Shown: piece by piece, positions 19,349 through 21,928 of the stretch | How the letters are laid out: every line of letters begins with the position of its first letter | Numbering within the stretch: the first letter of the stretch is position 1 | IMG/VR virus record: IMGVR_UViG_2571042487_000002 | Location: 1 to 34,042 of that record | Direction: 5' to 3' (one strand) | Source of the DNA: a virus | Taxonomy: Duplodnaviria > Heunggongvirae > Uroviricota > Caudoviricetes | Length of the DNA: 34,042 nt | Translations under genes and position numbers: made by a program | Notes under the pieces: model-generated | Told to the model about the DNA's origin: nothing | Seen by the model: only the letters and a program-made list of their open reading frames with translations | Databases searched by the model: none

Positions 19349-19580
19349 ACAGAACGAAAAAGCTATCGCTCAAATTGCTGATTATATCCCGCGTGCGTGC
19401 CGGGGTATGCAGTTGCAGGAAGCCAAAGCGCGCCTGGAGAAAAAAATTGCGCTCTATATTGATGACGGCTGTGATGCTGCCGTTCTTAACGCGGCGTTCG
19501 CACCAGCTCTTAACAGTCATACTCGGGAGTCTTTTTTTTCGTGCATCGAAGCGCAACTCCGCAAAGGAGGCAGCCAGTGA
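19341..19580 (+). CDS. Hypothetical small protein (79 aa) with ea22-type C-terminal tail (LRKGGSQ)
   Basis: ORF with GAGGTG RBS; the C-terminal tail is shared with two other ORFs in this region. Confidence 0.4.
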   Translation: MFKQNEKAIAQIADYIPRACRGMQLQEAKARLEKKIALYIDDGCDAAVLNAAFAPALNSHTRESFFSCIEAQLRKGGSQ

Positions 19581-20278
19581 GCGAAATTAATTACCGGGCA
19601 CTGCGTGAGATAGCAAAACAGGCAACACAGGGCGAATGGGTCGCATTTATTTCGCCGGGTACTGGTACGTATGCGGTGCATACGCCCGGTGATAAACGAT
19701 GTGAAGACGTTATCAAATGGACCGGCTTTGATGGACTGAAAAACGCAGAGAACAACGCTCGTTATATTGCCGCATTCAACCCAAAGGTTGCACTGGAGCT
19801 ACTTGGTGAAATTAAGCGCCTGGAGGACACAAATATTGATGCTATGTGCCGAATAGCACCGCTTGAGACTAAGCTCGCGGCTCTGGTGGCAGAGAACGCT
19901 GGGCTGAAACACGCAATGGCTGTAACTCTTGATCATGTGTCGGTCACGGATGCAGGGCAGGCCGGAGTTGCTGCAATGATTATCAACGATGCCCTACACC
20001 ACAGCGAAACTCCAGCTACCGATGCTTTTCTGGCTGAAATTCGTGCGGAAGCACGCAACGAGGGGATTAACTATACCGCCAGCCGTCTTGCTGCTGCGTT
20101 CAATCACGGATTTATCAATAAGTCTTTGCGTGAAGTTTTCGACGTTACGCGCATGATTCTGTCAGCGAAAGAAGAGTTGGCTAATGAACCGTACCCGATT
20201 GATGGCCTGTCCGGTGAATATGCGGAGAAATCCCTTGAAGAATGGGCTGAACAGATTCGCAAAGGAGCTGACAAGTGA
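19577..20278 (+). CDS. Ead/Ea22-like accessory protein
   Basis: GTG start after AAAGGAGG; N-terminus VSEINYRALRE... shared with the ORF at 21440; C-terminal block PATDAFLAEIRA shared with the ORF at 20694. Confidence 0.5.
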   Translation: MSEINYRALREIAKQATQGEWVAFISPGTGTYAVHTPGDKRCEDVIKWTGFDGLKNAENNARYIAAFNPKVALELLGEIKRLEDTNIDAMCRIAPLETKLAALVAENAGLKHAMAVTLDHVSVTDAGQAGVAAMIINDALHHSETPATDAFLAEIRAEARNEGINYTASRLAAAFNHGFINKSLREVFDVTRMILSAKEELANEPYPIDGLSGEYAEKSLEEWAEQIRKGADK

Positions 20279-20685
20279 AGAAGATGATTTTTGTCGCGGC
20301 ATTGTTGGTGAATATCCAACAAGTGCATGCTTCAGCAGCTATTGTAGCCTCTACCGCCGCGACTACGGCTGCTGTAGCTGCTGCGAACTCTGCGAATATC
20401 GCAAACCAACAGGCACAGCGTGCTGCTAATGCATCAGCCAGCGTTCACCCAATCACCATTAAGAGCAGTAAGCAAAATCTGGGATTCATAACGTGCGGCA
20501 CGCGTTCTAATGAAGCTGTAGGCTCTCTGGGATGTACGGTATATGGCGATAGTGAGCGCAGAGAAATTCCATGGAAAACGTGGCCCGGATACGTTCTCGG
20601 ATCGAAGCTCCCTGCCAGCTACGAAGTAAATGCCGTATCGTTTGATCACTATAACGGCGTGGCAACTGTCTATTTTACATACTGA
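20275..20685 (+). CDS. Secreted or periplasmic small protein (signal peptide)
   Basis: N-terminus MKKMIFVAALLVNIQQVHA-SAA is a signal-peptide-like h-region with AxA cleavage site; two Cys in the mature part. Confidence 0.5.
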   Translation: MKKMIFVAALLVNIQQVHASAAIVASTAATTAAVAAANSANIANQQAQRAANASASVHPITIKSSKQNLGFITCGTRSNEAVGSLGCTVYGDSERREIPWKTWPGYVLGSKLPASYEVNAVSFDHYNGVATVYFTY

Positions 20686-20693
20686 GGCTCCGC

Positions 20694-21443
20694 ATGAAAT
20701 TCTCCAAATTTTCTGAGTTGGTGAATCGTATTTTGTTGAATCGTATTTTGTCCAACAACCACAGCCATCGTCGCGATATGGATGTAACGATCGTTGTTCA
20801 TTCGCCTGGCAGCATTGGTTCAACACCTTCAGTTGAGGTTCAGTCAATTCACGCTGGTTTTGATTGGGATTCCGGGAAAGTGCTTATTTTCCCATCACAG
20901 CCACTGACCACGCTAACACCAGAACAGATTACTGATATCACTGATAGTGTGCGCAAAGGTCAGTCTTGGCACGCATATCAGGAATACAAGAAGCATCAAG
21001 AGCAGTTGGAAAAATTGTCGATTGAACTGGATGCCGCAAAACAGCGCATTGCAGAGCTGGATGGTAATCGCACGGCGCTGGCAGTGGAGAATGAGCTGGC
21101 TCGTAAGGCAGTTCAGGCATTCTGCGATGTTGTTGGCGACAACACCGAGGTTATCGCTGAGGTGGTTGGGCGAGATGGCGTTCTGGTTATTTTGGAGGCC
21201 ATGAAGGCAACAGGAAATATGCCAGCCACCGATGCTTTCCTGGCTGAAGTGCGGGCGCAGGGCGTGGATGCTGCTATAGAAGCTGCAAAAAATCTGGTGG
21301 CCCAAGAATATGAGTATAAGGATTTCAAAGCGGCGCAGAGTGATTGCTGTATGCACCCTGGTTCAGACCTGGTAGGGAAGGTTGAAATGACTGAGTGGTT
21401 AGTTGACTTTGCTGCCCAGCTTCGCAAAGGAGGCAACCAGTGA
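20694..21443 (+). CDS. Ead/Ea22-like coiled-coil accessory protein
   Basis: Central coiled coil; C-terminus ...FAAQLRKGGNQ and a PATDAFLAEVRA block. Confidence 0.5.
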   Translation: MKFSKFSELVNRILLNRILSNNHSHRRDMDVTIVVHSPGSIGSTPSVEVQSIHAGFDWDSGKVLIFPSQPLTTLTPEQITDITDSVRKGQSWHAYQEYKKHQEQLEKLSIELDAAKQRIAELDGNRTALAVENELARKAVQAFCDVVGDNTEVIAEVVGRDGVLVILEAMKATGNMPATDAFLAEVRAQGVDAAIEAAKNLVAQEYEYKDFKAAQSDCCMHPGSDLVGKVEMTEWLVDFAAQLRKGGNQ

Positions 21444-21928
21444 GCGAAATTAATTACCAGGCACTGCGTGAGGCGGCGGAACGTGCAATTCCAGCAATGG
21501 AACGCCTGTTAATGTTGCCAGCTGATGATGATTTGTTAAGTGAACAGGAACTTAAAGATTACGGTGTGGATATTGATGCGCTCAACGCCTTCAAATTTCT
21601 GGCCGGACCAGAAACCGTGCTGGCACTACTGGATGAACGGGAAAGGAACCAGCAATACATCAAATCCCGCGACCAGGAGAACGAGGATATTGCGCTAACG
21701 GTAGGGAAGTTGCGCGTTGAGCTTGAGGCAGAAAAACAGCGGGCAAAGGATCTGTTTATGGAAAATGCTCGGCTTAAGTCAGGTATAGCCGGTCTGATAC
21801 ACCTCGGTATTCGATATGCAGATGTTGATGTCATGAAAATTGCTGGAGATGCCCAGCTTTCTACCCCATGCACTGACAGCATCATAAACAGCATTGCAAC
21901 AGGCATTCGCATCAACGGAGGTGAGTAG
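21440..21928 (+). CDS. Ead/Ea22-like accessory protein
   Basis: GTG start after AAAGGAGG; N-terminus VSEINYQALRE. Confidence 0.5.
   Translation: MSEINYQALREAAERAIPAMERLLMLPADDDLLSEQELKDYGVDIDALNAFKFLAGPETVLALLDERERNQQYIKSRDQENEDIALTVGKLRVELEAEKQRAKDLFMENARLKSGIAGLIHLGIRYADVDVMKIAGDAQLSTPCTDSIINSIATGIRINGGE

Follow-up and report, generated by a model that had tools for sequence, protein, structure and literature searches.

The 34,042-nucleotide (nt) stretch of viral DNA examined herein (IMG/VR record IMGVR_UViG_2571042487_000002, Caudoviricetes; hereafter the window) carries a row of accessory genes, several of them related to the Ead/Ea22 family of phage proteins, that are joined to one another by a repeated sequence of 50 nt. 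This single element serves as a protein tail, a ribosome-binding site, a start codon and a family N-terminus, and it seems to act as a recombination patch as well. On the basis of comparisons with related loci, we consider it probable that the repeat is a standard joint between promoterless, translationally coupled gene cassettes, and that homologous exchange within the shared block swaps the genes on either side. The joint would belong to the early-operon 'ea' regions of enterobacterial temperate phages, and here it resides within a P1-like phage-plasmid. It offers a clean, countable case in the debate between homologous exchange at short linkers and random joining followed by selection: the linker is visible and has sharp edges, a control boundary one gene away is static, and two slots carry the same gene.

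Anatomy of the junction and its two halves

The repeated sequence, CGCAAAGGAGGCAGCCAGTGAGCGAAATTAATTACCGGGCACTGCGTGAG, lies at 19560-19609 (copy 1) and again at 21423-21472 (copy 2). A preliminary description of this DNA had reported the pair with two or three mismatches, and there are exactly two. No match was obtained in 100 dinucleotide-preserving shuffles of the window, with zero expected by chance. The ungapped similarity between the two copies extends over 75 nt at 84% identity (19551-19625 versus 21414-21488). In copy 1, the Shine-Dalgarno (SD) sequence AAGGAGG (19564-19570) is followed by a 6-nt spacer and by the start codon GTG at 19577, which overlaps the TGA stop codon (19578-19580) of a gene for a 79-amino-acid protein; the right part of this copy provides the first 11 codons (SEINYRALRE..) of Ea22-like gene 1. 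Copy 2 has its SD sequence at 21427-21433, 6 nt before a GTG at 21440 that overlaps the TGA (21441-21443) of a 249-amino-acid Ea22-related gene, and its right part is the N-terminal block SEINYQALRE of Ea22-like gene 2. The reading frames thus agree with the earlier assignment of an LRKGG(S/N)Q tail, a VSEINY(R/Q)ALRE N-terminus and a ribosome-binding site to the repeat.

A shorter version, previously noticed at 20252-20277, is placed here at 20258-20278 (CGCAAAGGAG....AGTGA), with similarity to copy 2 beginning at about 20246. It carries an SD-like AAGGAG (20262-20267) and a GTG at 20275 that overlaps a TGA. In all three junctions, the TGA stop overlaps the next GTG start as GTGA, and the SD sequence stands 6-7 nt before the GTG. 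Because AAGGAGG lies within the coding tail, the R-K-G-G codons double as the ribosome-binding site, and the overlapping stop and start would couple translation of the two genes. The 96-nt stretches of the three junctions fold no better than shuffled sequences (z = -0.19, 0.00 and -0.38), repeat analysis of the window found no inverted repeat at the junctions, and an Rfam scan of 17000-25000 gave two chance-level matches only, both far below the gathering score. A structured junction RNA, either an SD-sequestering coupling hairpin or an attC-like fold, was ruled out because the folding is no better than that of shuffled sequence.

Judging from the contexts in which its parts occur, the junction consists of two separable halves. 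The left half (about 20-35 nt) comprises the last upstream codons, ..(AQL)RKGGNQ, doubling as AAGGAGG, together with the 6-nt spacer and the GTG/TGA overlap, and the right half (about 30-40 nt) comprises the first 11-13 codons of the Ead/Ea22 family (MSEINYQALREAAE). The left half (..CGCAAAGGAGGCAACCAGTGA) also precedes genes outside the Ea22 family, namely a 645-nt gene, a DUF4752 gene, a 300-nt gene and a DUF7739 gene, and in two of the flank classes defined below (classes L3 and L13) it lies outside any real upstream gene, the in-frame open reading frame (ORF) being only 12-15 codons long. Thus, the left half is primarily a translation-initiation module, and any gene that runs into it in frame from upstream takes on the RKGGNQ tail. 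In six loci among L192-L271, the spacer has lost 1 nt (GGAGGCACCAGTG), which shifts the frame of the 79-residue gene; this gene then ends in ..AQIRKGGTSERD and overlaps the next one by 13 nt, showing that it can do without the tail sequence. Unrelated ribosome-binding sites may also precede the right half (AGCGAAATTAATTACCAGGCACTGCGTGAG), as they do in 37 other contexts found by a scan that admitted only patterns back-translated from the peptide, and with mostly synonymous differences. A protein-level regular-expression scan for further Ea22 starts within the first loci gave almost nothing new. Given this mostly synonymous variation after other ribosome-binding sites, the right half is also kept as a peptide or as an initiation region. 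The linker picture is refined accordingly: the half with tail, SD sequence and start is found before genes outside the Ea22 family, and the Ea22 N-terminal block is found after other ribosome-binding sites.

The Ea22-like label given earlier to this region also stands. PF13935 is matched by Ea22-like gene 1 (E=2.9e-26, 93.1 bits, residues 2-155) and by Ea22-like gene 2 (E=7.6e-33, 114.5 bits, residues 2-128), compared with a gathering score of 27 bits, and in both matches residue 2 is aligned to profile position 1. Relatives of Ea22-like gene 1 in RefSeq carry an ead/Ea22-like annotation. The 249-residue gene (20694-21443) has no Pfam match, and from its sequence it is best regarded as Ea22-related via phrog_368 and not as a member of PF13935; phrog_368 covers its residues 22-249, residues 1-232 of Ea22-like gene 1, and also Ea22-like gene 2. 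Its product is laid out as a distinct N-terminal segment (phrog_6026), a coiled-coil-like stretch, a PATDAFLAE block and the QLRKGGNQ tail. The PATDAFLAE(I/V)RA block had been described as common to the ORFs at 19577 and 20694, and its two copies (20012-20047 and 21222-21257) are indeed 86% identical; in Ea22-like gene 1, it is a shared block inside the gene. A further shared internal block (LALLDERERNQQYIK..) is located at about 21608-21740 in Ea22-like gene 2. The blocks are 84-96% identical as DNA, whereas elsewhere the three Ea22-related proteins have about 31% of their residues in common.

Reassortment, insertions and breakpoints

Viral contigs were scanned for AAAGGAGGNNNNCAGTGAGCGAAAT, which yielded at least 119 loci, and 114 junctions were used for an analysis in which the 100 nt on each side, excluding the junction itself, were clustered into flank classes. 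Among the matches listed, 17 upstream classes are paired with 9 downstream classes in 38 ways, and all four combinations are present in 23 quartets; one upstream gene outside the Ea22 family (ending in ..NKYLNAMWRKGGNQ) is joined to 8 of the 9 downstream classes, and every one of the 9 has at least two upstream partners. When two junctions have unlike flanks, the stretch that they share ends between -36 and -14 and between +30 and +42 relative to the GTG, leaving a block of 45-80 nt with sharp edges. The flank classes are each 95-99% conserved over many genomes, yet they are combined differently. Stx2a phages match the window only at 21425-21477, with 98% identity, and in three loci (L047, L072 and L088) the upstream gene of the short form carries a full junction that is followed by an Ea22 gene.

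Two samples provide cleaner tests, one a set of plasmids matched by backbone and the other anchored on the 79-residue gene. For the latter, 80 loci were picked by homology to that gene, of which 79 were usable. The 100 nt before the gene form one class in all 79, and the 100 nt after the junction form 15 classes that include at least three genes outside the Ea22 family. Random joining followed by selection would be expected to affect both boundaries; because the boundary with the repeat reassorts and the neighboring boundary without it does not, this comparison argues against such a process.

The backbone-matched set consists of eight P1-like plasmids that were chosen by overall similarity, not for the junction, and were aligned to the window. 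Six of their 18 distinct breakpoint positions between 19000 and 22200 fall within the 206 nt of junction blocks, where 1.16 would be expected (P=6.7e-4), an excess of about 5-fold. The preliminary description had suggested that the repeats are recombination linkers that shuffle cassettes, and had pointed to an association between repeat and mosaic breakpoints as its test; the association is strong, and flank reassortment, exact insertions, a cassette in two slots and a one-junction form (see below) support the same suggestion. Among 144 informative loci, a sample partly selected for carrying the junction, 10 of 68 breakpoint positions between 17000 and 24500 lie in junction blocks (1.9 expected, P=1.7e-5), and 7 more lie in the two PATDAFLAE blocks.

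At copy 1, breakpoints occur at 19561, 19581-19585 and 19608-19609. Three of the plasmids (L183, L184 and L187) have a 645-nt gene inserted exactly at the GTGA of this copy, so that the match to the window stops at 19581-19582 and restarts at 19585. At the short form, the match of seven of the eight plasmids stops at 20266, inside the SD sequence, and restarts at 20689, with a DUF4752 gene in place of the 136-residue gene. Copy 2 has breakpoints at 21401-21428, 21439-21449, 21459, 21470-21472 and 21483; a 300-nt gene (L182) or a 645-nt gene (L186) is inserted at its GTGA (21441-21448), and in three other plasmids (L185, L187 and L188) the match stops at 21459 or 21470 and restarts at 21608. 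The shared blocks inside genes are used as well. Breakpoints lie at 20005-20013, 20035-20038 and 20047 around the first PATDAFLAE block; at the second, the match starts at 21219-21222 in 46 loci, with other ends at 21257 and 21268. Within Ea22-like gene 2, breakpoints occur at 21608-21619 and, in 46 loci, at 21730-21740.

The 645-nt gene (product MSNRFYMM..) follows the 79-residue gene in L184 and a gene of the 249-residue type in L186, and the two copies are 97% identical. Their identity starts at -14 (AAGGAGGCAnCCAGTG) and stops just past ..ACTGCGTGAGGCGGCAGAA / ..CTGCGTGAGGCGGCAGAA, the Ea22 N-terminal block of the next gene, and the flanks of the gene in the two plasmids are unrelated on both sides. 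By this alignment, a single cassette occupies two slots, with a junction half at each of its ends. A one-junction form is found in two loci (L035 and L053), in which the 79-residue gene is joined directly to the second Ea22 gene via a single junction that has the copy-1 variant (GCAGCC) on its left and the copy-2 variant (CCAGGC) on its right. As far as sequence can tell, this form is the expected product of a crossover between the two direct repeats of the window, or of the reverse event.

The junction is also widespread. The 90-nt stretch around copy 2 is present in 1031 of 5426 complete Escherichia coli genomes, where it occupies 948 places on chromosomes and 296 on plasmids, and it is also present in 90 phage records. 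Related places number about 4,400 in complete E. coli genomes, with up to 7 in a single genome, and the junction is found in Stx, HK97-like, P22-like and P1-like phages. Cassettes are common to P1-like plasmids and lambdoid prophages. Among species-representative genomes (one per species), there are two matches, to the E. coli representative and to a 3.2-kb contig from a metagenome-assembled genome. The latter (L189, QMND01000122.1, Candidatus Shapirobacteria, 41% G+C) is the sole match outside Escherichia to the 21 specified bases. This contig shares nothing else with the window, and with about 0.3 chance matches expected by our own estimate, the match is probably due to chance. The range of the junction is therefore essentially Escherichia and close relatives, and a scan with one genome per species says little more.

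Homologous exchange and competing explanations

The process that we favor can be described as follows. A block of 45-80 nt that is near-identical across unrelated contexts would provide enough homology for recombination. Its length is within the range of the homology arms used in Red/RecT recombineering, and it exceeds the minimum for RecA-dependent exchange in E. coli. Exchange could be carried out by general or phage-encoded homologous recombination of the RecA, Red-beta, RecT or Erf type, although the choice of recombinase is our inference; no Red, RecT or Erf gene is present in the examined parts of the P1-like backbone of the window. The partners might be two phages, a prophage and a plasmid, or two copies in one genome, which presupposes elements that reside in the same cell. 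Crossovers in the block would insert, delete or swap whole genes while leaving reading frames, SD sequence and stop/start coupling intact, and an in-frame upstream gene would gain the RKGGNQ tail. Nearly every crossover product would then be viable, which could explain the frequent use of this boundary. Similar recombination may take place within the PATDAFLAE blocks and the block ALLDERERNQQYIK (21608-21740). That the junction block is itself the substrate is suggested by the hybrid junctions and by cassette identity that ends in the two block halves.

Several observations weigh against this reading or narrow it. It is based on sequence comparison, which gives indirect evidence of exchange. 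The loci from the junction scan and from the back-translated pattern scan were mostly chosen for carrying the junction and are therefore biased samples. Furthermore, the region is mosaic throughout, with 68 distinct breakpoint positions in 7.5 kb, most of them outside the junctions, and some of the most-used breakpoints are elsewhere (21219-21222, 21730-21740, 22445-22451 and 23110-23123). The junction is thus not the sole breakpoint cluster in a very mosaic region. A join at 20686-20689, 5-8 nt before an ATG, has nothing shared upstream, and so linker-independent joining also occurs. Part of the similarity of the block clearly comes from selection, both on the peptide and on the initiation region. 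Finally, the AQLRKGG codons of the 79-residue gene partly differ from those of copy 2, which indicates a similarity that is old and selected and not the result of recent exchange.

Some of these points are what would be expected if the repeats were conserved family ends plus an optimized initiation region under purifying selection, with illegitimate joining occurring anywhere and being selected at gene boundaries in the manner of Hendrix-type models. The repeats would then be markers of the boundaries and not the substrate of exchange. In keeping with this explanation, the Pfam Ead_Ea22 model begins at this very N-terminus, the N-terminal block is also found after unrelated ribosome-binding sites with mostly synonymous differences, and the same operon has breakpoint boundaries without a shared linker, such as that at 20686-20689. 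In addition, reviews note that most mosaic joints in phages lack conserved boundary sequences (PMC3029335). However, selection on proteins and initiation signals does not account for flanks that are unrelated on both sides of a near-identical 45-80-nt DNA block with sharp edges, for the existence of hybrid junctions, or for a cassette that occupies two slots and whose identity ends within the two halves of the block. Moreover, random joining should hit neighboring boundaries alike, whereas the repeat-less boundary is unchanged in 79 loci that have 15 different partners at the junction. We therefore regard this explanation as unlikely. Local tandem duplication of an Ea22 gene, with the middle parts diverging in place and no exchange between genomes, would account for three tandem Ea22-related genes with distantly similar proteins (31% identity), and tandem paralogs are also present nearby (22101-22462). 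Nevertheless, copy 1 follows a 79-residue gene that is unrelated to Ea22, and divergence in place cannot put one 645-nt gene in two slots. The table of flank combinations already contradicts this scenario, since flank classes that are 95-99% conserved across genomes are combined differently, and cassettes are common to P1-like plasmids and lambdoid prophages. Duplication alone is accordingly a very improbable account of the region.

A dedicated site-specific system, either integron-like or homing-like, might instead move cassettes at the junction. In its favor, promoterless cassettes are arrayed behind a single promoter, and one cassette can be found in different slots. However, the junction has no inverted repeat, folds no better than shuffled sequence and has no Rfam match, the crossover points are spread over the block and are not fixed, and in the annotations of the loci examined no recombinase gene accompanies the cassettes. 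This possibility strikes us as the hardest of all to credit. A bolder extension of homologous exchange within the block is that the stop-SD-start joint defines an integron-like cassette system without a recombinase of its own. Its cassettes would be excised (perhaps as small circles), captured and frequently re-ordered by phage annealing proteins, P1-like phage-plasmids and lambdoid prophages, two temperate lineages unrelated to each other, would have a common pool of accessory genes, and RKGGNQ and MSEINYQALRE would be kept mainly for the sake of a recombinogenic joint. We offer this as a speculation that is more doubtful still than the purifying-selection account, and well short of the simpler proposal of homologous exchange between blocks.

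Genomic setting and comparison with known systems

From its sequence, the window can be recognized as part of a P1-like phage-plasmid with a Punavirus backbone. Positions 9-16000 are 98.9% identical to P1 66370-82155 (dmt, ban, ppp, pmgQ), and 24000-34042 matches P1, RCS47 and SJ46 from pdcB to c1 (including lpa and pacAB). The Ea22 region is matched best by E. coli plasmids around 95 kb in size, which carry humD, phd/doc and pdcB. The gene at 16297-17559 occupies the pmgS position of relatives and P1, and the gene at 17632-18138 occupies the pap position. Ten sites in the window resemble the P1 C1-repressor operator with at most three mismatches to the consensus (0.18 expected), which is consistent with a P1-type immunity network. 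In P1, the operon at the OpmgT operator has only pmgT-pmgU-pmgV by its annotation, and in the window about 5 kb of tightly packed plus-strand genes lie downstream of the corresponding operator. No sigma-70-like promoter was found on the plus strand between 18140 and 24500, and the first convincing terminator-like hairpin after the array likely marks the end of the transcription unit. Because there is neither a promoter nor a convincing terminator before 24129, the cassettes are taken to be promoterless members of an enlarged, C1-controlled pmgT operon, in which a cassette is translated either from its own ribosome-binding site or by coupling to the preceding gene. In this way, P1-like phage-plasmids draw accessory genes from the lambdoid 'ea' pool into an operon under C1 control. 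The features discussed herein are collected in Table 1.

Table 1. Features of the cassette region and its operon in the window
Feature	Position	Strand	Remarks
C1-repressor operator (Op88/OpmgT position)	18138..18154	+	1 mismatch to ATTGCTCTAATAAATTT; directly after pap
Other C1-operator-like sites	2305, 2316, 12373, 15997, 16046, 29165, 33438, 33902, 33985		
79-residue gene	19341..19580	+	phrog_1344; no Pfam match; ends ..EAQLRKGGSQ
Junction copy 1	19551..19625 (core 19560-19609)	+	tail ..AQLRKGGSQ of 79-residue gene
Ead/Ea22-like gene 1, 233 residues	19577..20278	+	PF13935, phrog_368; ends ..EQIRKGADK
PATDAFLAE block PATDAFLAEIRA	20012..20047	+	inside Ea22-like gene 1
Short junction form, left half only	20246..20278	+	tail ..EQIRKGADK, then non-Ea22 gene
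136-residue cassette gene	20275..20685	+	phrog_8805; N-terminus MKKMIFVAALLVNIQQVHA
249-residue Ea22-related gene	20694..21443	+	phrog_368; ends ..AAQLRKGGNQ
PATDAFLAE block PATDAFLAEVRA	21222..21257	+	inside 249-residue Ea22-related gene
Junction copy 2	21414..21488 (core 21423-21472)	+	tail ..AAQLRKGGNQ of 249-residue gene
Ead/Ea22-like gene 2, 162 residues	21440..21928	+	PF13935
First convincing terminator-like hairpin after the array	24129..24145	+	

Several further observations concern individual genes. The 79-residue gene was considered as a detached Ea22 C-terminal domain, and this was ruled out because its BLASTP similarity to Ea22-type proteins is limited to the 9-residue tail. The product of the 136-residue gene has a putative signal-peptide-like N-terminus. 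PADLOC models gave only weak matches of coiled-coil type to the cassette genes, and no defense role can be claimed. Near the start of the 249-residue gene is a 15-nt in-frame tandem duplication at 20718-20747 (TTGGTGAATCGTATT twice, giving LVNRILLNRIL) that L181 also has but L182-L186 and L188 lack. An antisense ORF at 21559-21915 on the minus strand faces the most conserved Ea22 block and has a match to phrog_13760 (E=5.8e-21), which is probably a PHROG family built from wrong-strand ORF calls; other minus-strand ORFs across the region have no family matches.

Annotation of Ea22 genes is inconsistent in two respects that the junction explains, namely the disagreement of annotation pipelines on gene starts and the split of Ea22-like proteins into partial PHROG families. 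For the gene type at 21440, RefSeq places the start either at an ATG 57 nt downstream of the GTG (21497 in the window) or at the GTG itself, which overlaps the stop of the gene before it; the records concerned are L182 8652, L183 9763 and L184 9157 versus L185 8294, L187 9100 and L188 8273. The ATG has no preceding SD sequence. The GTG is the better start because the Pfam match runs from residue 2 and AAGGAGG lies 6 nt upstream. Each of the Ea22-related proteins (window 19577-21928) matches 8-17 PHROG families, each over part of its length, and block mosaicism is what splits this family in clustering-based resources.

Downstream of the array described here, breakpoints at 22445-22451, 22990-22996 and 23110-23123 are each used in 16-42 loci and lie in the genes at 22392-22979 and 22976-23833 (DUF551), which suggests that these heavily used positions between 22445 and 23123 reflect further shared blocks. 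Two tandem paralogous small genes (22101-22277 and 22274-22462), whose products both start with MKNRKAK, have a 21-nt repeat at their starts (22100-22120 and 22273-22293). Three plasmids (L182, L184 and L185) have a single copy of this gene, and their breakpoints lie at 22120 and 22273. Here, the repeated gene starts have undergone unequal exchange, a smaller version of the process seen at the junctions.

We found no paper that describes this junction, or Ea22 cassettes in P1-like plasmids, in a search that missed most subscription journals. Ea22 proteins of lambda and Stx phages are described as block mosaics in PMC8614690 (citing Tong et al. 2020 and Dydecka et al. 2020), where the Ea22 gene of phage 933W is also said to be split by an insertion. 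These studies concern the same family, and they cover the proteins and a pro-lysogenic phenotype, not a DNA junction as a recombination site. Furthermore, the lambda and Stx genes reside in the exo-xis region, whereas those described here are in a P1-like plasmid.

Among known cassette systems, the promoter-early stem-loop (PeSL) cassettes of T4-type phages (Arbiol et al. 2010, PMC2839356) offer a close likeness. There, too, a repeated motif takes in the SD sequence and the start of the gene that follows. It is found on either side of non-essential ORFs in hyperplastic regions, where ORFs are inserted, deleted or replaced through recombination between its copies, and the expression signal moves with the gene. 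However, PeSLs are intergenic, about 100 bp long, and equipped with a sigma-70 promoter and a terminator hairpin, and mini-circles have been shown for them (PMC2839356). By comparison, the junction lacks a promoter and, when tested, a stable hairpin; it lies within overlapping coding sequence and supplies translation signals only. The likeness to integron arrays is one of layout alone, with promoterless cassettes in the same orientation, a common upstream promoter and varied positions. Unlike an integron, the junction is a plain direct repeat with scattered crossover points, and no structured attC-like site was found. No integrase or recombinase is annotated among the cassette neighbors in the eight relatives, although no dedicated integrase search of the whole window was made.

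In experiments by De Paepe et al. (2014, PMC3945230), Rad52-like recombinases of phages were shown to produce mosaics from homology that is short and diverged, with traces of homology remaining at the borders of exchanged fragments. By analogy, such relaxed recombination is the likely enzymology for the junction, but it is a general mechanism. The closest precedent is the modular theory, in which conserved boundary or linker sequences are proposed to be sites of homologous recombination that reassort genes (Susskind & Botstein 1978; Clark et al. 2001 for HK620; both as cited in PMC3029335). The linker sequences of lambdoid phages are, like the junction, short conserved gene-boundary sequences between unrelated modules, and they likewise involve accessory genes of lambdoid early operons. 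The features by which a linker is recognized are found here: a short boundary sequence (45-80 nt) is conserved between unrelated flanks, the modules reassort independently (38 combinations of 17 and 9 classes among the matches listed), and breakpoints are more common in the linker than expected (6 of 18 versus 1.16). In contrast to lambdoid linkers, the junction is coding on both sides, with a tail that is also the SD sequence, a stop/start overlap and an N-terminal block common to the whole family. It can be split into two halves, and it is also used in the operon of a P1-like phage-plasmid. The principle of a boundary or linker route to phage mosaicism is already known, and the junction is a new, well-documented example of it.

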